Sequence record: OR896820.1
Origin: Escherchia phage Stokescottia
Reading direction: 5' to 3' (one strand)
DNA: 64,000 nt
A program made the position numbers and the translations under genes. This document shows positions 1 through 49,931 of this stretch, in pieces. How positions within the stretch are numbered: position 1 is the first letter of the stretch; each line of letters begins with the position of its first letter. Under the pieces are notes generated by a model. The model was given only the letters and a program-made list of their open reading frames with translations, had not been told where the DNA came from and made no database searches.

Positions 1-1317
1 ATGGAAGTATCAAGACCCTACGTTAACACAGTAGATGTTATTGATTTCGGAATAGACAAACGTTTCTTTCGTCTACCCGTTTCAGGAATACTAGCACAAG
101 AAGGTATTACACCTAATGGTCCTCAAATAGCAATTATCAATGCGCTAGAGGATCCTAGACATCGTTTTGTAACGGCGTGTGTGTCACGCCGTGTAGGTAA
201 ATCCTTCATCGCATACACACTTGGGTTCCTAAAATTGCTGGAACCTAATGTGAAGGTGTTAGTAGTTGCTCCTAACTACTCACTGGCCAACATCGGATGG
301 TCTCAGATTCGTGGTCTTATTAAAAAGTACGGTCTACAAACTGAACGTGAGAATGCTAAAGATAAAGAAATTGAGCTAGCTAATGGTTCTCTATTTAAAC
401 TAGCTTCTGCAGCTCAGGCTGACTCCGCAGTTGGACGTTCATATGACTTTATCATCTTTGATGAGGCTGCAATTTCTGATGTAGGTGGTGATGCTTTTAG
501 AGTTCAGTTGCGTCCTACCCTAGATAAACCTAATTCTAAGGCTCTATTTATCTCTACTCCTCGTGGAGGTAACTGGTTTAAAGAGTTTTACGCCTATGGA
601 TTTGATGATACGTTGCCTAACTGGGTATCTATTCATGGTACATATCGTGATAACCCACGTGCTGATCTGAATGACATCGAAGAAGCACGTCGTACAGTTA
701 GTAAAAACTACTTCCGTCAGGAATACGAGGCTGACTTCTCCGTATTCGAAGGTCAGATCTTTGATACCTTTAATGCTATTGATCATGTTAAAGATCTCAA
801 AGGTATGCGTCACTTCTTTAAAGATGATGAAGCATTTGAAACATTGCTTGGCATTGACGTGGGTTATCGTGATCCTACAGCAGTTCTTACTATCAAGTAT
901 CACTATGATACGGATACTTACTATGTTTTAGAAGAGTACCAGCAGGCGGAGAAAACCACAGCTCAGCATGCTGCTTACATTCAGCACTGTATAGATCGTT
1001 ATAAAGTTGATCGTGTTTTTGTTGACTCTGCCGCAGCTCAGTTCCGTCAGGACTTAGCCTATGAACATGAAATTGCATCAGCTCCAGCTAAAAAATCTGT
1101 CCTAGATGGTCTAGCATGTTTACAGGCGTTATTCCAGCAGGGTAAGATTATTGTAGATGCTTCATGTTCCTCATTAATCCATGCGCTACAGAACTATAAG
1201 TGGGATTTCCAAGAAGGTGAAGAAAAATTATCACGTGAAAAACCACGTCATGATGCTAACTCTCACCTCTGTGATGCTCTGCGCTATGGAATTTATTCTA
1301 TTTCCCGTGGTAAATAA
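1..1317 (+). CDS. terL: Terminase large subunit (complete, or 5'-truncated at the window edge)
   Basis: 438-aa ORF starting at base 1; Walker-A-like 'VSRRVGKSF'; first gene of the head module, followed by portal; length as recalled for T5 TerL. Confidence 0.8.
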   Translation: MEVSRPYVNTVDVIDFGIDKRFFRLPVSGILAQEGITPNGPQIAIINALEDPRHRFVTACVSRRVGKSFIAYTLGFLKLLEPNVKVLVVAPNYSLANIGWSQIRGLIKKYGLQTERENAKDKEIELANGSLFKLASAAQADSAVGRSYDFIIFDEAAISDVGGDAFRVQLRPTLDKPNSKALFISTPRGGNWFKEFYAYGFDDTLPNWVSIHGTYRDNPRADLNDIEEARRTVSKNYFRQEYEADFSVFEGQIFDTFNAIDHVKDLKGMRHFFKDDEAFETLLGIDVGYRDPTAVLTIKYHYDTDTYYVLEEYQQAEKTTAQHAAYIQHCIDRYKVDRVFVDSAAAQFRQDLAYEHEIASAPAKKSVLDGLACLQALFQQGKIIVDASCSSLIHALQNYKWDFQEGEEKLSREKPRHDANSHLCDALRYGIYSISRGK

Positions 1318-1431
1318 ATAAGTATAGGATGGGATACTACTCAGTTGGTATCCCATTCCTGCATTTTAAAATCCCCTTTACAAATTCGATACGATTATGT
1401 ATACTATATTCATACAGTTGAGGAGAACACT

Positions 1432-1869
1432 ATGGCAAGCAATGTAAAATATAAACGCGATGCTATATCCCTTATGAGAGACGGAATAAAAAGTCAATAT
1501 AAAAAAGACTCTCAATGTGCTATCTGCGGTTGTGCTGAAGAATTAGAGCTTCATCATTACCATACGGTGTCTCTACTAGTTAAAAAATTTGCTAAAGAAC
1601 TCCAATTGGATTTCACTGACGAAGAAATAGTCCTTTCAAATAGGACGGCATTCTATGATCGATATAGGCATGAGCTAGTAGAAGACACTGTTACCCTTTG
1701 TGTACACCATCACCAATTATTACATAAGGTTTACACAAAAGAACCTCCTTTATTTTCTGCTAATAAGCAAAAAGTGTGGGTTCAAAAGCAGAAAGACAAA
1801 TTACAGAATCCTCAAGAAAAGACACAAGTCAAGACTGAAACAAAATCAGGATTCGCAAGGTTCTTATAA
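1432..1869 (+). CDS. HNH-like zinc-finger protein between terminase and portal (start taken at MASNVKYK, which has a GAGGAG RBS)
   Basis: Cys/His motifs 'CAICGC...LHHYH' and 'LCVHHHQLLH'; the track ORF begins at 1345 on a start with no RBS. Confidence 0.4.
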   Translation: MASNVKYKRDAISLMRDGIKSQYKKDSQCAICGCAEELELHHYHTVSLLVKKFAKELQLDFTDEEIVLSNRTAFYDRYRHELVEDTVTLCVHHHQLLHKVYTKEPPLFSANKQKVWVQKQKDKLQNPQEKTQVKTETKSGFARFL

Positions 1870-3086
1870 TGGGTTTTAAAAGCTGGATTACTGAAAAGCT
1901 AAATCCGGGTCAACGTATTATAAGAGACATGGAACCAGTTAGTCATCGCACTAACCGTAAGCCTTTTACCACTGGACAAGCCTACAGTAAAATTGAGATC
2001 CTCAATAGAACTGCTAATATGGTTATAGATAGTGCGGCGGAGTGTTCTTATACTGTCGGAGATAAATATAATATTGTCACGTATGCTAATGGCATCAAGA
2101 CAAAGACTCTAGACACTCTCTTAAATGTACGACCTAATCCATTCATGGATATAAGCACATTCCGTAGACTTGTAGTCACTGACCTACTTTTTGAAGGTTG
2201 TGCATACATCTATTGGGATGGCACAGCACTTTATCATGTCCCTGCTGCACTTATGCAAGTAGAGGCAGATGCCAATAAGTTTATCAAAAAATTTATATTT
2301 AATAACCAGATAGACTATCGCGTAGATGAGATTATCTTTATAAAGGATAACAGTTACGTGTGTGGCACAAATTCTCAAATTTCTGGACAATCTCGTGTTG
2401 CTACTGTTATTGATTCTCTTGAGAAGCGTTCTAAGATGCTTAACTTTAAGGAGAAATTCCTCGATAACGGAACCGTGATTGGTCTTATTCTTGAGACGGA
2501 TGAAATCCTGAACAAGAAATTGCGTGAGCGTAAACAAGAAGAATTACAACTAGATTATAATCCTAGTACTGGTCAGTCCTCTGTCCTGATTCTAGATGGT
2601 GGTATGAAAGCTAAACCGTACTCCCAAATATCCTCTTTTAAAGATCTAGACTTTAAGGAAGACATTGAAGGATTTAATAAATCTATCTGTCTAGCCTTTG
2701 GTGTTCCGCAAGTACTGCTTGATGGTGGTAATAATGCGAACATTCGACCAAACATCGAATTGTTCTACTATATGACTATCATCCCTATGCTGAACAAGCT
2801 GACTAGTTCTCTTACTTTCTTTTTTGGTTATAAGATTACTCCTAATACTAAGGAAGTAGCTGCGTTAACACCAGACAAAGAAGCTGAGGCTAAACATTTA
2901 ACCTCATTGGTTAATAATGGTATTATGACTGGTAACGAAGCTCGTTTAGAGCTGAACCTTGAACCTTTAGATGATGAGCAGATGAATAAGATTCGTATTC
3001 CTGCTAACGTTGCTGGTTCTGCAACAGGTGTATCGGGTCAAGAAGGTGGTAGACCTCAAGGTTCCACCGAGGGAGATAAAGAATGA
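1869..3086 (+). CDS. Portal protein (pb7-like)
   Basis: 405 aa, immediately after the terminase region; length and position as in T5. Confidence 0.8.
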   Translation: MGFKSWITEKLNPGQRIIRDMEPVSHRTNRKPFTTGQAYSKIEILNRTANMVIDSAAECSYTVGDKYNIVTYANGIKTKTLDTLLNVRPNPFMDISTFRRLVVTDLLFEGCAYIYWDGTALYHVPAALMQVEADANKFIKKFIFNNQIDYRVDEIIFIKDNSYVCGTNSQISGQSRVATVIDSLEKRSKMLNFKEKFLDNGTVIGLILETDEILNKKLRERKQEELQLDYNPSTGQSSVLILDGGMKAKPYSQISSFKDLDFKEDIEGFNKSICLAFGVPQVLLDGGNNANIRPNIELFYYMTIIPMLNKLTSSLTFFFGYKITPNTKEVAALTPDKEAEAKHLTSLVNNGIMTGNEARLELNLEPLDDEQMNKIRIPANVAGSATGVSGQEGGRPQGSTEGDKE

Positions 3087-3574
3087 TTGATTATAATGGT
3101 CTAAAGACCATTTTTGGTGAAAAACTGCCAGAATCTCATATCTTCTTTGCTACGGTTGCTGCGCATAAATATGTTCCTAGCTATGCTTTTCTGCGTAGAG
3201 AACTAGGACTTTCATCTGCGCATACTAACCGTAAAGTATGGAAGAAATTTGTAGAGGCATATGGTAAAGCAGTTCCTCCTGCTCCGCCTGCTCCGCCCTT
3301 AACTCTTTCTAAAGATTTAGCTGCTAGCATGTCCGTTGAAGAGGGAGCAGCATTAACACTTTCTGTTACTGCAACCGGCGGCACTGGTCCTTATACTTAC
3401 GCATGGACTAAAGATGGTTCTCCTATTCCAGATGCTTCAGGAGCTACCTATACTAAGTCTGCAGCAGCTACTGATGATTCTGGGGTCTATAAAGTAACGG
3501 TTACTGATAGCAAGAAAGTTAGTAAACCTTCTACTGCATGCACAGTAACGGTTAATCCCGGTGTTGGAGGCTAA
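3083..3574 (+). CDS. Capsid decoration protein (pb10-like) with C-terminal Ig-like domain
   Basis: 163 aa; Pro/Ala linker 'PPAPPAPP' followed by an Ig-like segment ending 'TVTVNPG'; sits between portal and protease. Confidence 0.65.
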   Translation: MIDYNGLKTIFGEKLPESHIFFATVAAHKYVPSYAFLRRELGLSSAHTNRKVWKKFVEAYGKAVPPAPPAPPLTLSKDLAASMSVEEGAALTLSVTATGGTGPYTYAWTKDGSPIPDASGATYTKSAAATDDSGVYKVTVTDSKKVSKPSTACTVTVNPGVGG

Positions 3575-3577
3575 TAA

Positions 3578-4210
3578 ATGACACAAGCTGCTATTGACTA
3601 TAACAAGTTAAAATCAGCACCGGTTCATTTAGATGCTTATATTAAATCTATTGATAGCGAATCCAAAGAAGGTGTTGTAAAAATCCGTGGATTCGCTAAT
3701 ACAATTAGTAAAGATCGCGCTGGTGATGTAATCCCTGCTTCGGCATGGAAAACATCTAATGCACTTGCTAACTACATGAAAAACCCGATTATTCTTTTCG
3801 GACACGACCATCGTCGTCCAATCGGCAAGTGTATTGATCTTAACCCTACTGAAATGGGTCTCGAAATCGAATGCGAGATCTATGAAAGTTCTGATCCGGC
3901 TATCTTTTCACTAATTAAAAACGGTGTACTGAAAACTTTTAGTATCGGATTCCGCTGCCTAGACGCAGAGTGGGATGAAGCTACTGATATATTTATTATT
4001 AAAGATTTAGAACTATACGAAGTTTCGGTAGTTTCTGTACCCTGTAATCAGGACTCAACATTCAATCTCGCTAAGAGCATGAATGGTCATGATTATACTG
4101 AATGGCGTAAATCTTTTACTGCAATAAGTTCTAAAGCTGTCCCAGCTCAAGAACGTAATCTTTCTGAACTAGAAAAACTTGCGATAGCTTTAGGCTACGT
4201 TAAAGAATAA
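3578..4210 (+). CDS. Prohead maturation protease (pb11-like)
   Basis: 210 aa directly upstream of the major capsid gene. Confidence 0.7.
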   Translation: MTQAAIDYNKLKSAPVHLDAYIKSIDSESKEGVVKIRGFANTISKDRAGDVIPASAWKTSNALANYMKNPIILFGHDHRRPIGKCIDLNPTEMGLEIECEIYESSDPAIFSLIKNGVLKTFSIGFRCLDAEWDEATDIFIIKDLELYEVSVVSVPCNQDSTFNLAKSMNGHDYTEWRKSFTAISSKAVPAQERNLSELEKLAIALGYVKE

Positions 4211-4227
4211 CGGAGAATTATTTAAAA

Positions 4228-5604
4228 ATGACTATTGATATTAATAAGCTGAAAGAAGAACTTGGTCTGGGTGATCTGGCTAAATCTCTGGAAGGTCTGA
4301 CCGCTGCTCAGAAAGCTGCTGAAGCTGAACGTATGCGTAAAGAGCAGGAAGAAAAAGAACTGGCTCGTATGAATGATCTGGTTTCTAAAGCAGTTGGCGA
4401 AGATCGTCAGAAACTGGAAGAAGCTCTGACTCTGGTTAAGTCTCTGGATGAGAAATCTAAGAAGAGCGCAGAACTGTTTGCACAGACTGTAGAAAAACAG
4501 CAGGAAACTATTGTTGGTCTCCAGGATGAAATTAAATCTCTGCTGGCAGCTCGTGAAGGACGTTCCTTCGTCGGTGATAGCGTAGCTAAAGCGCTGTACG
4601 GTACTCAGGAAAACTTTGAAGATGAAGTTGAAAAACTGGTTCTGTTATCTTATGTAATGGAAAAAGGCGTATTCGAGACCGAGCACGGTCAGAGACACCT
4701 GAAAGCAGTGAATCAGTCTTCCTCTGTAGAAGTTTCTAGTGAAAGCTATGAAACTATTTTCTCTCAGCGTATTATCCGTGACCTGCAGAAGGAACTGGTA
4801 GTTGGTGCACTGTTCGAAGAACTGCCAATGTCTAGTAAGATTCTTACTATGTTGGTTGAACCGGATGCTGGTAAAGCTACTTGGGTTGCTGCTTCTACCT
4901 ATGGTACTGATACTACTACTGGTGAGGAAGTTAAAGGCGCTCTTAAAGAAATTCACTTCAGTACTTACAAACTGGCTGCTAAGTCCTTCATTACTGATGA
5001 AACTGAAGAAGATGCAATCTTCTCCCTGCTACCGCTGCTTCGTAAGCGCTTGATTGAAGCACACGCTGTTTCTATCGAAGAAGCTTTCATGACTGGTGAT
5101 GGTTCTGGTAAGCCTAAAGGTCTGCTGACTCTTGCTAGTGAAGACAGCGCTAAAGTTATTACCGAAGCTAAAGCTGATGGTTCTGTTCTGGTAACTGCTA
5201 AAACTATCTCTAAACTGCGTCGTAAACTGGGCCGTCATGGTCTGAAACTGAGCAAACTGGTACTGATCGTATCTATGGATGCTTACTACGATCTGCTGGA
5301 AGATGAAGAATGGCAGGATGTTGCACAGGTTGGTAACGATGCTGTTAAACTGCAGGGCCAGGTTGGTCGTATTTATGGTCTGCCGGTTGTAGTTTCTGAA
5401 TACTTCCCAGCTAAAGCTACCTCCGCAGAGTTCGCAGTTATTGTTTATAAAGATAACTTTGTAATGCCGCGCCAGCGTGCTGTTACTGTTGAACGTGAGC
5501 GCCAAGCTGGTAAACAGCGTGATGCGTACTACGTTACTCAGCGTGTTAACCTGCAACGTTACTTTAGTAATGGCGTTGTATCTGGTGCTTACGCTGCATC
5601 TTAA
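4228..5604 (+). CDS. Major capsid protein (pb8-like) with N-terminal coiled-coil scaffolding region
   Basis: 458 aa; charged coiled-coil N-terminus; strongly biased high-expression codon usage; followed by a hairpin terminator. Confidence 0.8.
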   Translation: MTIDINKLKEELGLGDLAKSLEGLTAAQKAAEAERMRKEQEEKELARMNDLVSKAVGEDRQKLEEALTLVKSLDEKSKKSAELFAQTVEKQQETIVGLQDEIKSLLAAREGRSFVGDSVAKALYGTQENFEDEVEKLVLLSYVMEKGVFETEHGQRHLKAVNQSSSVEVSSESYETIFSQRIIRDLQKELVVGALFEELPMSSKILTMLVEPDAGKATWVAASTYGTDTTTGEEVKGALKEIHFSTYKLAAKSFITDETEEDAIFSLLPLLRKRLIEAHAVSIEEAFMTGDGSGKPKGLLTLASEDSAKVITEAKADGSVLVTAKTISKLRRKLGRHGLKLSKLVLIVSMDAYYDLLEDEEWQDVAQVGNDAVKLQGQVGRIYGLPVVVSEYFPAKATSAEFAVIVYKDNFVMPRQRAVTVERERQAGKQRDAYYVTQRVNLQRYFSNGVVSGAYAAS

Positions 5605-5624
5605 TACAGGCTTTTCAGCCGATA

Positions 5625-5650
5625 AGGAGAGCTTCGGCTCTCCTTTTTTA
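5625..5650 (+). terminator. Rho-independent terminator after the major capsid gene
   Basis: Hairpin AGGAGAGC-TTCG-GCTCTCCT followed by a T-run. Confidence 0.75.
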
Positions 5651-5663
5651 TTGGGAAAAATAA

Positions 5664-6176
5664 ATGCAAATCATCACAGCCGAAGATTATAGATTATACG
5701 GTAGTTTAAAACGACCTGAATTAGAGTCTGGTGTAGAAATGATGATTACTGCTGCCAATGCGCTGATTACGAGCCTTCTAGGCATGGATGATGCTGATGC
5801 GGTAGACCAGTTAATCAATACAAAACCTACACGTAGGAAATATTTTCTGAGCTCACCATCTGCTACCTCCGTAACTAAAGTGACGATTAACGATAATGAG
5901 ATTGACCCAGAGCAGTATAAACTATACTCTGACGGTATTATCCTTCTCAAATTTAATCCTCCAGAAGGTTATATGGACGTAGCGTATACACAAGGTGGAT
6001 TCAATCCAATGCCTGAAGATCTTAAGCTAGCAGCATGTATGCTAGTAGATCATTGGCATAAACAAGATTACCGCCAAGCTAAAACAATTGGTGGTGAAAC
6101 AGTAACCTTCAATAATACTAAATCTGGTATTCCAGAGCATATTCGTACTATTATTGAAGTATATAGGAGAGTATAA
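5664..6176 (+). CDS. Head completion / adaptor protein (p144-like)
   Basis: 170 aa; position between capsid and tail tube genes. Confidence 0.45.
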   Translation: MQIITAEDYRLYGSLKRPELESGVEMMITAANALITSLLGMDDADAVDQLINTKPTRRKYFLSSPSATSVTKVTINDNEIDPEQYKLYSDGIILLKFNPPEGYMDVAYTQGGFNPMPEDLKLAACMLVDHWHKQDYRQAKTIGGETVTFNNTKSGIPEHIRTIIEVYRRV

Positions 6177-6943
6177 TGTCTCTTTCCGATCTAGCTAAAC
6201 AAATTATTAAAGAGCAGCTAGATACTGCAGGACGATCTGAAAATAATAAGAATACTGTTGTGTACTCTGTTGAAACAGGGTTAAAAGATCCTACTAGAGA
6301 TGGTACTGTTGCTCAAGTATCCTTTAAGTTTTCAAAACCCGTATCACAAGATCTTCTTGATGTTAGAACAGCCTCTATACTAAAAGCTGTATCCTCTAGT
6401 TTAGATCTTTCGGGAGATTTAGGTGCTCTAGAAAATCTTATACAGGCAACCGCAGGTAAAAAATCTGCTGTAGGTAAAAAACGTTCTACAGGCAGAGTAG
6501 AGGTAAACTTTGGAGATCCTAAAGACGTAGAGGATGGATACTCAGGTGCAATAACAGGTGCTTCCGGACGTTTCGTGTCTAATAGCAATATGAAGGTTAT
6601 ATTAGAGATAGTTGCTAAAGAATACTTAATAAAGGATATGAAAAAGACAGGAGCGCCATTAAAATTTAGAACCGGTCGCTTTGCAAATTCTCTAAAAATT
6701 AAAGATGTTATGCTTAGAGACGCAGAGACTAGTAAAGGTTCTCCTGAATTGAACGTAACATATAATTATATGACTCGTCCATATTCTGTATTCAACCCTG
6801 CAGTATCCACCTACAGGAGACTATCTCTACGACCTTATCCTGGTGCTAGAAACCCCCAAAAACTTATTGGTGAGGCTATAGCAAAAGCTGCAAGAGACCT
6901 GATTCACTCCAGATATAAAATTAAGGTTAATCAAGGAACCTAA
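6176..6943 (+). CDS. Head-tail joining protein (p143-like)
   Basis: 255 aa; synteny only. Confidence 0.4.
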   Translation: MSLSDLAKQIIKEQLDTAGRSENNKNTVVYSVETGLKDPTRDGTVAQVSFKFSKPVSQDLLDVRTASILKAVSSSLDLSGDLGALENLIQATAGKKSAVGKKRSTGRVEVNFGDPKDVEDGYSGAITGASGRFVSNSNMKVILEIVAKEYLIKDMKKTGAPLKFRTGRFANSLKIKDVMLRDAETSKGSPELNVTYNYMTRPYSVFNPAVSTYRRLSLRPYPGARNPQKLIGEAIAKAARDLIHSRYKIKVNQGT

Positions 6944-6946
6944 TAA

Positions 6947-7432
6947 ATGGACCATAGAACAAGTATTGCACAAGCTATGGTTGACCGAATCTCTAAACAA
7001 ATGGATGGTTCTCAACCTGACGAATATTTTAATAACCTATACGGAAACGTTTCTCGTCAAACTTATAAATTTGAGGAAATACGAGAGTTTCCTTATGTGG
7101 CAGTTCATATCGGAACTGAAACTGGGCAGTATCTTCCTTCGGGCCAACAGTGGATGTTTTTAGAACTTCCAATCCTGGTGTACGATAAAGAGAAAACAGA
7201 CATTCAAGAGCAACTTGAAAAACTCGTAGCGGATATAAAAACCGTTATTGACACAGGTGGAAATTTAGAATATACTGTTAGTAAACCTAATGGATCGACC
7301 TTCCCATGTGAGGCAACTGATATGATCATTACATCAGTTAGTACAGATGAGGGTCTACTGGCCCCATATGGTTTAGCAGAAATAAATGTAACAGTGAGGT
7401 ATCAGCCTCCACGTAGGTCACTTCGCAGATAA
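6947..7432 (+). CDS. Tail terminator protein (p142-like)
   Basis: 161 aa immediately upstream of the tail tube gene. Confidence 0.4.
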   Translation: MDHRTSIAQAMVDRISKQMDGSQPDEYFNNLYGNVSRQTYKFEEIREFPYVAVHIGTETGQYLPSGQQWMFLELPILVYDKEKTDIQEQLEKLVADIKTVIDTGGNLEYTVSKPNGSTFPCEATDMIITSVSTDEGLLAPYGLAEINVTVRYQPPRRSLRR

Positions 7433-7458
7433 GTTACAGATTAGGAGAAAATAATTAA

Positions 7459-8853
7459 ATGTCTTTACAACTATTACGTAATACTCGAATCTTCGTGTCT
7501 ACGGTTAAGACTGGTCATGATAAGACCAACACGCAAGAGATTCTAGTTCAGGATGATATTTCTTGGGGTCAGGACAGTAACTCAACAGATATTACTGTTA
7601 ATGAAGCTGGTCCGCGTCCAACTCGTGGTTCTAAACGTTTTAATGACTCTTTAAACGCGGCTGAGTGGAGTTTCTCTACTTATATCCTGCCGTATAAAGA
7701 TAAAACTACTAGCAAACAAATTGTTCCTGACTATATGTTATGGCATGCACTTTCTAGTGGTAAAGCTATTAACTTAGAAGGTAATACAGGGGCACACAAT
7801 AACGAAGCTAACTTTATGGTTAACTTCAAAGATAACTCCTATCATGAGTTGGCAATGTTACATATTTATATTCTGACTGATAAAGCATGGAGTTATATCG
7901 ATTCCTGTCAGATTAATCAGGCAGAAATTAACGTTGATATCGAAGATATTGGCCGTGTAACTTGGTCTGGTAATGGTAATCAGCTTATTCCTCTGGATGA
8001 GCAACCATTTGACCCAGATGTAGTAGGTATTGATGATGAAACTTATATGACTATCCAGAGTTCTTATATTAAGAACAAACTTACTATCCTGAAAATTAAG
8101 GATATGGATTCTGGTAAAGCATATGATATTCCTATTACTGGTGGTACTTTCACTATTAATAACAACATCACGTACCTAACCCCGAATATTATGTCTCGTG
8201 TTAATATTCCAATTGGTTCCTTTACTGGTGCTTTTGAATTAACTGGTTCATTAACTGCTTATCTGAATGATAAATCTCTTGGTTCTATGGATCTGTATAA
8301 AGATCTTATCAAAACTCTGAAGGTAGTTAACCGCTTCGAAATTGCTCTAGTACTTGGTGGTGAATACGATGAAGAACGTCCTGCGGCTATTCTGGTAGCT
8401 AAACAAGCACACGTTAATATTCCTACTATTGAAACTGATGATGTACTTGGTACTTCAGTAGAGTTTAAAGCTATTCCATCTGATCTGGATGCTGGTGATG
8501 AAGGTTACTTAGGCTTCTCTAGTAAATATACCAAAACAACTATTAATAACTTGATTGTTAATGGTGATGGTGCTACTAATGCTGTAACCGCAATTACTGT
8601 TAAATCTGCTGGTGATGCTACTACAGTAAACAACTCGGCTACTCTTCAAATGAGTGTTGAAGTTACTCCTTCTTCCGCAAAGAATAAGGAAGTTACTTGG
8701 GCTATCACTGCCGGTGATGCAGCTACTATCAGTGCAACTGGACTGTTAACAGCACATGCTAGTAAAACTGGTGCAGTTACTGTAGAAGCTACTGCTAAAG
8801 ATGGTTCTGGAGTTAAAGGTACTAAACAGATTACTGTAACAACAGGTGGCTAA
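7459..8853 (+). CDS. Tail tube protein (pb6-like) with C-terminal Ig-like (Big_2-type) domain
   Basis: 464 aa; C-terminal Ig-like segment '...TVEATAKDGSGVKGTKQITVTTGG'. Confidence 0.75.
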   Translation: MSLQLLRNTRIFVSTVKTGHDKTNTQEILVQDDISWGQDSNSTDITVNEAGPRPTRGSKRFNDSLNAAEWSFSTYILPYKDKTTSKQIVPDYMLWHALSSGKAINLEGNTGAHNNEANFMVNFKDNSYHELAMLHIYILTDKAWSYIDSCQINQAEINVDIEDIGRVTWSGNGNQLIPLDEQPFDPDVVGIDDETYMTIQSSYIKNKLTILKIKDMDSGKAYDIPITGGTFTINNNITYLTPNIMSRVNIPIGSFTGAFELTGSLTAYLNDKSLGSMDLYKDLIKTLKVVNRFEIALVLGGEYDEERPAAILVAKQAHVNIPTIETDDVLGTSVEFKAIPSDLDAGDEGYLGFSSKYTKTTINNLIVNGDGATNAVTAITVKSAGDATTVNNSATLQMSVEVTPSSAKNKEVTWAITAGDAATISATGLLTAHASKTGAVTVEATAKDGSGVKGTKQITVTTGG

Positions 8854-8857
8854 TTAA

Positions 8858-9757
8858 ATGTACTACTCTCTAATGAGAGAGTCAAAAGTTATAGTTGAGT
8901 ATGATGGTAGGGCATTTCATTTTGATGCCCTATCAAACTATGATATACAGACTTCCTACGAGGAATTCAAGACTCTTCGTAGGACTGTTCATCGTAGAAC
9001 TAACTATGCAGACTCTATTATAAATGCTCAAACTCCCTCTTCTATCTCTCTAGCAGTAAATTTCAGCAATACTCTTACGGAGGCTAACTTCTTTGAATGG
9101 TTAGGTTTTGATAGAAAAGGTAATACTTTCTTACTCCCACTATATAGTAATAATATTGAACCTATTATGTTCAATATCTATATAGTAAATAAAGATAATA
9201 ACTGTGTATATTTTGAAAACTGCTATGTATCTACGGTAGATTTTTCTTTAGATAAGAATATACCAATTCTTAATGTTGGTATTGAATCGGGGAAATTTTC
9301 CGAAGTATCTACGTATAGAGAAGCAGCTTCTATTATACAGGGTGAAGTAATGTCTTATAGCCCAGTAGTAGCTTCTACTAATGGTAGCATCTTACCTGGT
9401 CTTATTTCTGCCTCTTTATCTTTCCAGCAGCAGTGCTCCTGGAGAGAGGATAAGAGTGTTTTTGATATAAATAAAATTTATAATAATAAAAGAGCCTATG
9501 TAACTGAAATGAATGCTTCGGCAACCCTTTCCCTGTATTACTTAAAACGTTTTGCAGGAGATATGGTTTATAATATAGAACCGGAGACAGATGTACCTTT
9601 AACGATAAGAAATAATAATATTTCTATAGATTTTCCTTCAGCACGTATTACAAAACGCCTAGAGTTCTCAGATGTGTATAGAGTTGAGTGGGATATTATA
9701 CCTACTGCTTCTTCAGACCCAGTGAGAATAGATTTCTTTGGAGAAATTAAAAAATGA
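8858..9757 (+). CDS. Minor tail protein (p140-like)
   Basis: 299 aa; synteny between tail tube and chaperone genes. Confidence 0.4.
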   Translation: MYYSLMRESKVIVEYDGRAFHFDALSNYDIQTSYEEFKTLRRTVHRRTNYADSIINAQTPSSISLAVNFSNTLTEANFFEWLGFDRKGNTFLLPLYSNNIEPIMFNIYIVNKDNNCVYFENCYVSTVDFSLDKNIPILNVGIESGKFSEVSTYREAASIIQGEVMSYSPVVASTNGSILPGLISASLSFQQQCSWREDKSVFDINKIYNNKRAYVTEMNASATLSLYYLKRFAGDMVYNIEPETDVPLTIRNNNISIDFPSARITKRLEFSDVYRVEWDIIPTASSDPVRIDFFGEIKK

Positions 9758-46503: not shown

Positions 46504-47019
46504 TTACTGAATTGATTCCCTACCATATAATTGGCCCCTAAACATCTTGGCCATAGAACATGCAACTTCATAGTTATCATATGTTCCTTTAACTACTCGT
46601 TTACGATTAATAGTAAATACTACTTGCCAGTTCTTACTACCAGAAGGGTAAACATGCATTCCTTTCTTATATTTGGTATTTCTTAGATTACCAGTTACTG
46701 TCTGATCCCTAAGATTTTCAATACGATCATCGCCTTTTATAGTGTTCTCATGATCTACCAAATCAGGTAAGTATCCATGATGCATTAAGAAGATAGCTCT
46801 GTGTCGGAGCATAGTTCTACTCCCTAGAGAAATACGGTAATAACCATTCCCCGTTGAAACACAACATTCCTTGCCTGCATTTCTTCCTGTAGTTCTAAAT
46901 AATTTTCCATCTTCATATCGGAAATTATCTAAAAGTTCTTGTTGTGTGAGCGACATCTTTACCTCCAATACATATATTATTACATAATCCATCCAATTTG
47001 TCAATGACAATTTATTCAT
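46504..47019 (-). CDS. HNH homing endonuclease
   Basis: 171 aa; HNH core 'VDHENTIKGDDRIENLR' followed by an AP2-like DNA-binding segment. Confidence 0.6.
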   Translation of the reverse strand: MNKLSLTNWMDYVIIYVLEVKMSLTQQELLDNFRYEDGKLFRTTGRNAGKECCVSTGNGYYRISLGSRTMLRHRAIFLMHHGYLPDLVDHENTIKGDDRIENLRDQTVTGNLRNTKYKKGMHVYPSGSKNWQVVFTINRKRVVKGTYDNYEVACSMAKMFRGQLYGRESIQ

Positions 47020-47098
47020 ACTGTCAATTAACTGGAAAGATTAGGTAATAATCCGAGCACTAATAGCCCGGATTATAGAGTTCAGCTAATAAAAATCA

Positions 47099-47488
47099 TT
47101 AGTCACTTAACCCCGGAACATAGATCCCAACACGGTTTAATTGTTCTTTAGCTTCTTTGAGTATATCTGGAGTGTACTCCCAAATATCATCTTCCACCTG
47201 TAAAAGATGGGGCGAACAACCGTCATCAGGCACACGACATATGGCCAAACCACGTGGATGGAACAAAGAGAAATTTAGGGCAACAATTAAACCCATAGCA
47301 GACAATTCATTCCAATCCAATTCCCATTCCCCGGCGTATCCAGACAGGAAAATGCCAATGCATGGATCATCTATTTGCTGCTCCGGAAAAGTGAAGGAGG
47401 CTTGTCTTACCCCCAACCAACGTTGTAGCAGCTTCTCCGCACGTTTCACCAAACTAGGGTCAATCTGACGCCAATATACTTGTTCCAT
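47099..47488 (-). CDS. Hypothetical protein, tandem paralog A
   Basis: 129 aa; shares 'PCIGI', 'MGL..ALN..LF.P' and 'PGL' anchors with the adjacent ORF. Confidence 0.35.
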   Translation of the reverse strand: MEQVYWRQIDPSLVKRAEKLLQRWLGVRQASFTFPEQQIDDPCIGIFLSGYAGEWELDWNELSAMGLIVALNFSLFHPRGLAICRVPDDGCSPHLLQVEDDIWEYTPDILKEAKEQLNRVGIYVPGLSD

Positions 47489-47497
47489 CCTGCCTCC

Positions 47498-47926
47498 TTA
47501 AGCAGTTAAACCTGGGATCATATACCCGAAACGTCGAAGTTTCTGAATCCCATCATTTACTTCTTCCGGTGAGTAAGACCAACCATAACGTTCATTAACC
47601 TGAAAACCAGGAGATTCACTAGTTTTATAGTTAACAACGAGGCGATGCTTAGCAGGCATAAACAGCTTATAGTTTAACGCAAAAACTAAGCCCATTTCAT
47701 CTAACTCTTTCCAGCCGACAATCTCTTCAAGACCCTCCTCTACCTGAACAATTAAACCAATACAGGGGGCCTCATCAATATCATCTTTAAAAGCAAAGGA
47801 GATTTCGTTATTCTCACACCATATTTTCAAAGAGTTAATAGCCTTATTATACAGGCTAGCTGGGAGAGTACGCCAAAAGTTAACCAAAATTGGGTTAGCT
47901 TCTTTAGAGAATACATTATTAAACAT
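47498..47926 (-). CDS. Hypothetical protein, tandem paralog B
   Basis: 142 aa; paralog of 47099-47488. Confidence 0.35.
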   Translation of the reverse strand: MFNNVFSKEANPILVNFWRTLPASLYNKAINSLKIWCENNEISFAFKDDIDEAPCIGLIVQVEEGLEEIVGWKELDEMGLVFALNYKLFMPAKHRLVVNYKTSESPGFQVNERYGWSYSPEEVNDGIQKLRRFGYMIPGLTA

Positions 47927-47928
47927 AT

Positions 47929-48441
47929 TTACACCTTAAATTGTTGTAGGGCTTTACACATTTCAAGATCTGGACTAAATTCTAACATATAGCTAACAGC
48001 TTTTAAATCTTGAAGATTTATTCCAGTCCTACCGTTGACTATAACCGTTGGATACTGATACATCATAGCACCCGCATCGTCAAGCACACACCAATGTTTG
48101 AGCCTATGCTTTTCAACGAAGCGAAGAACAGAATTACCCCTAGATAATCCACCCCCGGTAAAATCCGTTGTACCAAGAAAACGATCGATAAGGCCTAATC
48201 CGGTCATAATCTGAACATTCTCCATCTCATTTCTGACAGAGAACCAAGATGATACTCCAACAATCATTATCGGGGAAGGACGAATAAAGTCCTGAAAAGC
48301 CTTGAGAAGCGGTTTGAAAACCCAGTCACTCCCAAAGAAAATCTTTTCATCATCAGGTGCATGATGGTGGGAGATGCTCGAATTGAGCACCCCATCAATG
48401 TCTAGAAAAATAATTGGAGTATTACTTATTTCCTGATACAT
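47929..48441 (-). CDS. HAD-superfamily phosphatase-like protein
   Basis: 170 aa; motif I 'FLDIDGVL'; start overlaps the Sir2-like gene end. Confidence 0.5.
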   Translation of the reverse strand: MYQEISNTPIIFLDIDGVLNSSISHHHAPDDEKIFFGSDWVFKPLLKAFQDFIRPSPIMIVGVSSWFSVRNEMENVQIMTGLGLIDRFLGTTDFTGGGLSRGNSVLRFVEKHRLKHWCVLDDAGAMMYQYPTVIVNGRTGINLQDLKAVSYMLEFSPDLEMCKALQQFKV

Positions 48442-49237
48442 AAGGTCTATCCCCTAAATGAGCTTCTACACGAGCAATAAAATCAGGATCACTGAAAGCA
48501 TCTACCGCACCTTTACTCCAGTAAGGGATACCGCGTTCTTCCAGCTGGTACATCTCACTACGAGTCATACCTTGATAGCCCGGTTCCACCGCTAGGGCAC
48601 TATCATAGTAGTTAACAACCATTAGCTTGGCAGCAGTCAAATTAAGAACAGGAAATAATTCCCAGTAGAAATTAATTACTTGGTTAGAGCAACCAACCAC
48701 AATGATCATATCTTGACTGGTAATACCATCAAAAATATTGTACATCTCCGCATATGCTGGAGCATGCTCTCCAAAGAAGATTACATTAGGTTTAACCCAT
48801 TTATAATCATCTGGATCAATAGAATTGTATCCTACATCAATAATCCGTTTATTGCTACTATTGTAGCTATCAGCTACAACAACCTCTTTTAAATATCCGT
48901 GAATGTGCAGAATGTCACTATGTGAAACGCCAGCACGCTCAATAAGGTCATCAACGTTGGTAGTCAAGTTTACTACTTGACCTGGATATTGTTTATACCA
49001 TTCACCAATACGCAAATGCGCAAGATTGGGTTCAACAGTTTTTAGCTCTTCACGACGCTTGTTGTAAAACATATGGGTTTTATGATAAAAATTACCACGA
49101 AAGGCATGAATATTACATACTTCTTCTAGATCATAATCATCCCACAGTGCTTTACCACTAGCAGTATCAGTACGAAAAGCTCGTACACCACTTTCAACAC
49201 TCAAACCTGCACCGCTAATAATAATTAATCTACGCAT
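48422..49237 (-). CDS. Sir2-family NAD-dependent protein (sirtuin-like, no zinc ribbon)
   Basis: 271 aa; sirtuin motifs 'GAGLSVESGVRAFR', 'TTNVDDL', catalytic 'HG', 'PNVIFFGE', 'VVGCS'; no CxxC pairs. Confidence 0.65.
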   Translation of the reverse strand: MRRLIIISGAGLSVESGVRAFRTDTASGKALWDDYDLEEVCNIHAFRGNFYHKTHMFYNKRREELKTVEPNLAHLRIGEWYKQYPGQVVNLTTNVDDLIERAGVSHSDILHIHGYLKEVVVADSYNSSNKRIIDVGYNSIDPDDYKWVKPNVIFFGEHAPAYAEMYNIFDGITSQDMIIVVGCSNQVINFYWELFPVLNLTAAKLMVVNYYDSALAVEPGYQGMTRSEMYQLEERGIPYWSKGAVDAFSDPDFIARVEAHLGDRPYVSGNK

Positions 49238-49451
49238 TTTTCACCTGTTCTCTGAAGTTTTGCCCAATACTGTCTAATAGCTCAGCTAATTCTTTATTGC
49301 CTTTCTCCATTAAGGTATTAGCAATAACTTCTAGCATAGTAGCGCAGGATTCAACACCATCCTTATAGCCAGTTTCCCAGTGCTGCATTAATGCGTTTTC
49401 CAAAGCGGCGTTTAAACCCTTATCTGGTAGCATCGGCTTCGAGAATGCCAT
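49230..49451 (-). CDS. Hypothetical protein
   Basis: 73-aa ORF overlapping the Sir2-like start. Confidence 0.3.
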   Translation of the reverse strand: MAFSKPMLPDKGLNAALENALMQHWETGYKDGVESCATMLEVIANTLMEKGNKELAELLDSIGQNFREQVKNA

Positions 49452-49623
49452 AAAGTTTCTCCTCTAGTTCCATAACACGATTTTCATAAGAGGCACGCAA
49501 CTTTTCAATTGCCAGCGCACGCACTGTAACCTCATTAGAATTAATAGCTAATTGGGCCAGGTCTTCTGTTTCCATACGTCCGTTGTAAATTAAGCGATAT
49601 TTAAGATGTTTTACGTTTTTCAT
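49420..49623 (-). CDS. Hypothetical protein
   Basis: 67-aa ORF in the same overlapping operon. Confidence 0.3.
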   Translation of the reverse strand: MKNVKHLKYRLIYNGRMETEDLAQLAINSNEVTVRALAIEKLRASYENRVMELEEKLYGILEADATR

Positions 49624-49832
49624 TCTTGTTCCTCAAACATTTCAATTTCTGCATTAGCAATAGAAAGGGCGGGCTCAGATAAGCACAATCCCATCCTAGG
49701 ATCGATCTTCCCTTCGCCAATCCAAGTACTTACTAAACATAATTTAGTTATATCCTCACGGAGAATCGAACCATATGCCCCAGAATCCATAATAAAATAG
49801 ATACGTTCTTTATCTACCTTGTGAACTCTCAT
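49620..49832 (-). CDS. Hypothetical protein
   Basis: 70-aa ORF, first gene of the operon; TTGCTT-N17-TATAAT promoter and GAGGAG RBS upstream. Confidence 0.3.
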   Translation of the reverse strand: MRVHKVDKERIYFIMDSGAYGSILREDITKLCLVSTWIGEGKIDPRMGLCLSEPALSIANAEIEMFEEQE

Positions 49833-49860: not shown

Positions 49861-49889
49861 ATTATACATAAATTTTTGGCTGAAAGCAA
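49861..49889 (-). promoter_or_regulatory. Early promoter (TTGCTT-N17-TATAAT) for the Sir2 operon
   Basis: Hexamers with 17-nt spacing; 'aaatttgagaggag' leader. Confidence 0.6.
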
Positions 49890-49931
49890 ATAAAATAAAA
49901 GCCAGGTCGACTAGCAACCCGGCTGATTAGC

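Follow-up and report, generated by a model that had tools for sequence, protein, structure and literature searches.

What does a sirtuin-like protein without a zinc ribbon do in a T5-like phage, and how is it related to the phosphatase encoded immediately after it? The question is raised by a locus of phage Stokescottia, found in a 64,000-nt stretch of sequence record OR896820.1 (the window), in which seven minus-strand open reading frames (ORFs) occupying positions 49832–47099 lie behind one promoter between nrdD and an HNH endonuclease gene. An initial annotation of this DNA treated the seven genes as a single module, likened the Sir2-like protein to defence-associated NADases and presented the locus as an undescribed system. 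The functional core is the Sir2 and HAD phosphatase genes; the remaining five ORFs, early genes transcribed with them, have no demonstrated link to it. The pair is tentatively read as performing NAD+-dependent processing of RNA 2'-phosphates or ADP-ribose-phosphate.

Both the element and this predicted role are already published, since the Sir2-HAD neighbourhood and its proposed function were described by Iyer, Burroughs, Anantharaman & Aravind (2022, Viruses 14:1977; PMC9503650), and the locus is therefore a re-discovery of a published prediction rather than an undescribed system without an assigned role. There, Escherichia phage SP15 is the prototype of a 'type 3' neighbourhood of a sirtuin and a Swiss-army-knife HAD. 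The prediction is one of NAD+-dependent RNA repair, in which the sirtuin acts like KptA and strips 2'-phosphates after metal-independent nucleases, with partner enzymes opening the cyclic phosphate or processing the ADP-ribose cyclic phosphate by-product. SP15 shares 94% DNA identity with the window (Sir2 96% and HAD 98% identical as proteins) and has the same genes, in the same adjacency, in the same phage group. As in the published type, the window holds a phage-clade sirtuin adjoining a candidate enzyme of RNA ends or cyclic phosphates (HAD_SAK_2), but it lacks a 60-aa ORF that separates the two genes in SP15 and has another first ORF. The accessible text describes the sirtuin and the HAD only. 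The missing zinc ribbon was not new either, as phage Sir2/CobB proteins without zinc-finger cysteines were described by Skliros et al. (2016; PMC5107563), who listed T5 and proposed a deacetylase role, and T5 relatives have been annotated with a 'Sir2-like protein' at this position for years.

A zinc-less sirtuin and a capless phosphatase

The 271-aa protein (48422–49237, minus strand; T5.102 family) matched Pfam SIR2 (PF02146) with E=4.2e-25 over profile positions 1–178 of 180, and phrog_2162 with E=6e-120. This places it in the Sir2 fold, in agreement with the core motifs read in the initial annotation. Conservation was assessed in an alignment of 33 diverse homologues. The NAD+-site motif GAGxSxxxG(I/V)xxFR reads GAGLSVESGVRAFR in the window protein and is invariant in all 33 clade members, and the clade-invariant positions comprise GAGxSxxSG, FR, F57-Y58-x-x-R61-R62, T93-N94-V95-D96-D97, H113-G114 and FFxE. 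The catalytic H113-G114, N94 and D96 are thus all retained, with the Q of the sirtuin motif replaced by T (TTNVDD). The segment F57-Y58-N-K-R61-R62 aligns with FYNARR of CobB and contains the class III Tyr-x-x-Arg pair, which binds acidic acyl groups in SIRT5 (Y102/R105) and CobB (Y92/R95). Canonical deacylase sirtuins have a zinc-binding small domain, with four cysteines (CxxC...CxxC) in most structures. Zinc-ribbon cysteines were found in no clade member, and no Cys stands where the Cys stretch of CobB aligns; the only conserved cysteines, C41 and C183, both lie outside the small domain. The clade is acidic, with a median isoelectric point (pI) of 5.2, and almost confined to phage genomes and phage-sized contigs. 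Detection by tblastn gave about 1007 phage records, drawn from T5-likes, Vequintavirinae, phi92-likes, Vibrio schizoT4-likes and jumbo phages.

These properties could also describe a CobB/SIRT5-like NAD+-dependent lysine deacylase that resets host or phage acylation early in infection, with the HAD an unrelated neighbour such as a nucleotide or sugar-phosphate phosphatase. Among solved structures, E. coli CobB (1s5p, E=1.3e-17) comes closest, followed by Sir2Af1/2, SIRT5 and Sir2Tm; CobB, Sir2Af and SIRT5 are the best sequence relatives (E 1e-17 to 3e-12), all NCBIfam matches are to deacylase models, and the clade shows no variation in FYxxRR, in the FFGE loop or in the catalytic residues (Asn, Asp and His). 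Deacetylase function was argued by Skliros et al. (2016; PMC5107563) despite the absent cysteines. An unrelated HAD would fit an operon situated amid nrdD, nrdAB, thyA and frd, a nucleotide-metabolism block, and a HAD_SAK_2 homologue lies near dUTPase and primase genes in a T4-like phage without a Sir2. The NCBIfam scores are, however, all far under the curated cut-offs (NF001753, 100 bits versus 243; CobB model NF040867, 90 versus 320), and the zinc module, which to our knowledge is present in all characterised deacylase sirtuins, is absent clade-wide. The resemblance to CobB and SIRT5 extends to the Rossmann NAD+ site, the catalytic His, NxD, the FGE loop and Tyr-x-x-Arg, while the phage-borne protein departs from them in its missing zinc cysteines, in the Q to T exchange in TQNID and in its low model scores. 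There is also no obvious reason for a deacylase to recur beside RNA ligase, cREC, kinase and HAD_SAK genes in separate phage groups. A deacylase with an unrelated phosphatase neighbour is possible but, on this evidence, somewhat doubtful.

The analogy with defence-associated Sir2 NADases found no support. ThsA, DSR1/2, SIR2-HerA and SPARSA share the Sir2 superfamily fold and the use of NAD+ with the phage sirtuin, but the latter is phage-encoded, belongs to another clade and lacks their sensor or partner domains: in the Pfam searches SLOG, HerA, pAgo and TIR domains were neither fused to it nor present in its operon neighbours. None of the seven proteins matched a PADLOC model at E<=0.1. With nearest relatives among CobB/SIRT5-type deacylases and the class III Tyr/Arg pair invariant, a defence-type NADase of the ThsA, DSR or HerA type was rejected.

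The 170-aa product of the following gene (47929–48441, minus strand), in which the initial annotation had noted HAD motif I, is a capless HAD phosphatase of the HAD_SAK_2 family (PF18143, E=7.5e-20), named in Pfam "HAD domain in Swiss Army Knife RNA repair proteins". All four catalytic motifs are present, with D14/D16, S64/S65, R101 and D121 invariant and D122 nearly so among 26 homologues; judged from this alignment, the catalytic residues are intact. An AlphaFold2 model was confident (pLDDT 93.9) and has the Rossmannoid HAD fold; among its closest structural matches are capless HADs that act on macromolecules or sugar phosphates. At the sequence level no PDB entry was matched even at E<=10. 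MDP-1 and SCP1/Fcp1-type capless (C0) HADs are 13–15% identical to the window protein, which differs from them in having Arg, not Lys, as its motif III residue. The neighbour of Sir2 in Salmonella phage 8sent1748 is annotated as an "RNA repair protein".

One database label at this locus calls for caution. The family phrog_18062, named 'Sir2 (NAD-dependent deacetylase)' and 92 positions long, matches the C-terminal half of the HAD with E=1e-57 and Sir2 weakly. The family looks like an annotation artefact built from 90-aa Sir2-HAD fusion remnants of the kind found in Escherichia phage DT57C, and this would explain the two 'Sir2' genes annotated here in many RefSeq records.

Gene contexts and a candidate role in RNA repair

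Outside the T5-likes, sirtuin orthologs with 58–66% identity were found in arrays with the order RNA_lig_T4_1, cREC, AAA_33 kinase, Sir2 and DNA ligase. The phages concerned are Mydo, nomo and Erwinia phage pEa_SNUABM_55, together with a 50-kb contig, and represent Vequintavirinae; the cREC proteins matched PF20274 with E=2e-17 and 8e-15. Ligase, kinase and cyclic phosphodiesterase form the yeast Trl1-type toolkit; after sealing by this route a 2'-phosphate stays at the junction, and a 2'-phosphotransferase is required (the Trl1/Tpt1 pathway). An inverted second copy of the ligase-cREC-kinase-Sir2 array, probably a terminal repeat or an artefact of assembly, was seen at positions 1–5786 of contig L025.

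The HAD has contexts of its own. In three myophages of approximately 150 kb (Serratia phage ChuuTotoro, phage ABPH49 and a 152-kb metagenomic phage; extracts approximately 6001–9570), a PRPP-synthetase-like gene and a NAPRTase-family gene are immediately preceded by a HAD_SAK_2 homologue with 36–38% identity, and no sirtuin lies within 6 kb. This gene pair has the composition of NARP1, which consists of ADPS and NAMAT and rebuilds NAD+ from ADP-ribose and nicotinamide, although Pfam alone cannot separate NARP1 from Prs plus NAMPT. The Sir2 clusters of pEa_SNUABM_55 and Mydo are likewise bordered by a Prs-like gene, in Mydo together with a NAMPT-like gene. The myophage contexts suggest a tie between the HAD and ADP-ribose or NAD+ turnover, an association absent from the accessible portion of the 2022 text. 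Given its place beside NARP1-type genes, ADP-ribose phosphate is at least as likely a substrate of the HAD as RNA ends.

Under the tentatively favoured reading, the Sir2-HAD pair would serve in NAD+-dependent clean-up of damaged RNA, probably tRNA, as predicted by Iyer et al. (2022). The sirtuin would move ADP-ribose from NAD+ onto an RNA 2'-phosphate in the manner of Tpt1/KptA, a step expected to free nicotinamide and ADP-ribose (cyclic) phosphate and to leave a 2'-OH. The HAD would next take off a terminal phosphate, carried either by the RNA end or by the ADP-ribose-phosphate formed as a by-product. The likeness to Tpt1/KptA would lie in this proposed chemistry, in which an RNA 2'-phosphate receives ADP-ribose from NAD+, and in the co-location in related phages with ligase, kinase and phosphodiesterase genes. 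The folds are unrelated, Tpt1/KptA belonging to the ART superfamily according to Iyer et al. (2022; PMC9503650).

Several observations are consistent with RNA 2'-phosphate or ADP-ribose-phosphate processing. The role was predicted for exactly this group, with SP15 as its prototype, by Iyer et al. (2022). The ligase-cREC-kinase-Sir2 arrays constitute a healing-and-sealing enzyme set that requires a 2'-phosphotransferase, and the pairing of Sir2 with the HAD is retained in Enterobacter phage KKP_3711 and contig L015 despite a rearranged gene order. The HAD appears catalytically competent, its modelled structure resembles capless enzymes of macromolecules or sugar phosphates, and its family stands beside the NARP1-type pair in three myophages. 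The clade-wide loss of the zinc module separates the phage sirtuins from characterised deacylases, and the 23 tRNA genes of T5-likes would be plausible clients.

Other observations weigh against this assignment. No homologue of the RNA ligase, cREC or kinase of Mydo was detected in the window or in SP15 1–85 kb (tblastn, E<=0.01, at BLAST-level sensitivity), nor was one annotated, and for T5-likes without these enzymes the pathway would be incomplete unless host enzymes complete it. All the deacylase hallmarks, among them the FFGE loop and the class III Tyr/Arg residues, are retained in the sirtuin, and its acidity is atypical of enzymes that bind RNA. Nor is the pairing obligatory: Klebsiella T5-likes have Sir2 without the HAD and the myophages the HAD without Sir2. 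Synteny within a single lineage of phages is a poor guide to functional coupling. DT57C is viable with a Sir2-HAD remnant, no RNA-repair genes lie near the sirtuin in a phi92-like phage, and our literature search returned no experimental study of any phage sirtuin.

The same contexts bear on another explanation, in which the sirtuin is an NADase or a modifier of ADP-ribose signals used in host takeover or counter-defence and the HAD processes its products. NAD+ is a known battleground, and TrudiRoth and other T5-likes carry NARP3 for rebuilding it; the tie of the HAD to NARP1-type genes would also fit. In the phi92-like Escherichia phage ECO340P2 (extract 940–5816), the block around the orthologous sirtuin includes, at a distance of approximately 4 kb, a member of the Acb2/Tad1-hairpin family, to which anti-CBASS/Thoeris sponges belong. 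Nevertheless, the protein shows no similarity to any PADLOC defence Sir2 model and has no sensor or regulatory domain. A free-running NADase would moreover be self-harming because T5-likes possess an NAD-dependent DNA ligase and some restore NAD+ through NARP3, which makes such an enzyme unlikely given the phage's own NAD+ needs. We regard this explanation as improbable.

A wider scheme can be drawn, although it is speculative and we think it rather unlikely as a whole. The zinc-less clade might be the first nucleic-acid sirtuin, convergent with Tpt1/KptA, and HAD_SAK_2 an ADP-ribose-phosphate phosphatase feeding NARP1-type recycling, which together would give an NAD+-neutral tRNA repair countering host tRNA nucleases. 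A sirtuin acting on RNA 2'-phosphates, the first half of the scheme, had been predicted in 2022, and the contexts found here suggest a connection of the HAD with NAD+ recycling. The clade occurs in approximately 1000 sequenced phages, including T5-, V5- and phi92-like phages and jumbo phages. If the sirtuin removes RNA 2'-phosphates, sirtuin chemistry would extend to nucleic acids and phages would have a widespread means of countering defences that cleave tRNA; deacylase activity would instead mean that phages reprogram host protein acylation. Either outcome is experimentally tractable in a classical model phage.

Variation of the operon among T5-like phages

The seven proteins all matched PHROG families (E 7e-31 to 6e-120) and a Shine-Dalgarno-like motif precedes 7/7 ORF starts; the strength of the family matches indicates that the ORFs are genuine genes, not chance ORFs. 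The junctions between them are, in order, -4, -32, -8, -20, +2 and +9 nt, in line with the overlapping or near-abutting boundaries first noted. Whether all seven form one system, with the small ORFs and the DUF7415 pair at the 3' end as regulators or adaptors of Sir2 and the HAD, can be judged from natural variants. A single conserved promoter and tight overlaps would be expected of such a system, and the order Sir2, HAD and two DUF7415 genes is kept in the Tequintavirus and Epseptimavirus representatives examined; tight gene packing is, on the other hand, normal in T5 early operons.

Sir2, the HAD and the DUF7415 pair are all present in the window, SP15 and 8sent1748 (Tequintavirus). In Salmonella phage SP76 (Epseptimavirus) the HAD is 91% and the DUF7415 pair 95–99% identical to the window proteins, while Sir2 is present with only 52% identity; as the HNH gene of SP76 (locus extract 5001–8096) is 99% identical, this divergent Sir2 among conserved neighbours points to a recombinational swap of sirtuin alleles between Tequintavirus and Epseptimavirus. 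DT57C (Tequintavirus) has an intact DUF7415 pair and intact small ORFs, but its Sir2 and HAD are reduced to a 90-aa remnant (locus extract 2354–2626) in which Sir2 residues 169–233 are fused to HAD residues 130–170. The viability of this isolate shows that propagation requires neither enzyme. Klebsiella phage phi1_146058 has Sir2 and the DUF7415 pair and no HAD. Enterobacter phage KKP_3711 and contig L015 have Sir2 with a HAD of 39–41% identity located upstream of it, and lack DUF7415.

The gap between Sir2 and the HAD varies as well. An extra ORF of approximately 60 aa lies there in SP15, 8sent1748 and SP76 and is absent from the window, where, without this segment (approximately 320 bp; SP15 extract 6260–6583), the end of Sir2 and the beginning of the HAD gene share 20 nt (48422–48441). 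A shared 116-aa partner of the HAD was considered for contig L015 and for L019, one of the three myophages, and was dismissed, because the two proteins are not homologous.

The comparison thus upholds a conserved early operon and promoter, but the gene content varies in DT57C, the Klebsiella phage and KKP_3711. No pairing other than Sir2-HAD withstands rearrangement, and that one too is facultative. The single seven-gene system that had been supposed is not borne out: natural variants part Sir2 and the HAD from the small ORFs and from the two DUF7415 genes, the first slot and the Sir2-HAD gap hold different genes in different phages, single-domain DUF7415 genes occur in unrelated contexts, and no DUF7415 gene was seen at the examined sirtuin loci outside the T5-likes. 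A seven-gene system is accordingly very improbable.

Small ORFs, the DUF7415 pair and operon boundaries

The first gene after the promoter (orf70; 49620–49832, minus strand) encodes a small acidic protein of 70 aa that matched phrog_20147 (E=1.5e-36) and no Pfam, NCBIfam or PADLOC model. It is present in DT57C and one Klebsiella T5-like, and the first slot of SP15 is occupied by an unrelated 126-aa gene (locus extract 4680–5060), a homologue of which lies between the HAD and Sir2 in contig L015 (743–1093). The first slot is therefore a variable cassette. The second gene (orf67; 49420–49623, minus strand; 67 aa; T5.101 family; phrog_5236, E=3.7e-46) is kept in DT57C, and residues 2–67 of its product are 100% identical to the SP15 and 8sent1748 homologues. 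The third (orf73; 49230–49451, minus strand; 73 aa; phrog_5827, E=7e-31) overlaps it by 32 nt and gave no Pfam domain match.

The tandem paralog pair at the 3' end of the operon, recognised as such in the initial annotation, consists of DUF7415 protein a (47498–47926, minus strand; 142 aa; T5.106 family) and protein b (47099–47488, minus strand; 129 aa; T5.107 family). Both matched Pfam DUF7415 (PF24187), with E=1.5e-35 and 1.5e-31 and scores of 121.6 and 108.8 bits against a gathering cut-off of 27, and they are 32% identical to each other (E=3e-21). An exhaustive HMM search of 1.84 billion proteins yielded only 50 representatives at E<=1e-3, and full-length DUF7415 and HAD homologues each occur in roughly 450–520 phage records. 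Although Pfam matches two stretches in each protein, alignment of half against half gave no significant internal duplication (z = 0.4–2.4). The C-terminal half of protein b matches single-domain proteins of approximately 72 aa from T4-like and other phages.

In KpV477 and other T4-like Klebsiella phages, a 72-aa single-domain gene of this kind lies between nrdD and nrdG (KpV477 locus 3495–3713), and in T5-likes the pair lies approximately 2 kb downstream of nrdD. A link between DUF7415 and NrdD was not adopted because the single-domain contexts in RB43, Aeromonas phage 65 and TW1 are unrelated. The only informative fusion is a 515-aa protein (P0182) with an N-terminal DUF7415 and a C-terminal thymidylate-kinase-like P-loop kinase; this alone was too thin a basis for a function, and two further candidates (P0150 and P0195) were low-complexity or cadherin-repeat noise. 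A literature search found no paper naming DUF7415. Its genes are mislabelled 'tail tube protein' or 'exonuclease' in database records.

The single promoter reported for the operon was borne out. It lies at 49861–49889 on the minus strand and is a T5 early-type sigma-70 promoter, with TTGCTT (49889–49884), a 17-nt spacer, TATAAT (49866–49861) and an AT-rich upstream tract; it resembles the classical T5 early promoters. With only 3/6 matching positions in its -35 element, it escaped a generic scan for promoters. When the same intergenic region was aligned from seven T5-like phages of several genera, TTGCT and TAtAAT were invariant or nearly so across Tequintavirus, Epseptimavirus and the Klebsiella and Enterobacter T5-likes, and both hexamers are kept although the first downstream gene differs. 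Upstream, nrdD is closed by a terminator-like hairpin (49900–49924, minus strand; 10-bp stem with 6 GC pairs, then a T-run) that is conserved in T5-like phages. Downstream of the last gene, a 9-bp hairpin without a U-run (47050–47074, minus strand), read from the sequence and not called by the terminator scan, may be a weak operon end. Within the whole 64-kb window no Rfam family and no tRNA gene was found.

Megablast of the window retrieved 448 phage records, the best being Tequintavirus genomes with 93–96% identity. The HNH endonuclease beyond the operon (region 46504–47004, minus strand; 150 aa) most likely starts at 46956, behind the Shine-Dalgarno sequence GGAGG. Its gene has its own near-consensus promoter at 47004–46976 (TTGACA, 17 nt, AATAAT, with a TG element). 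It is not at the corresponding position in DT57C, the Klebsiella T5-like or KKP_3711, a distribution that fits a free-standing homing endonuclease.

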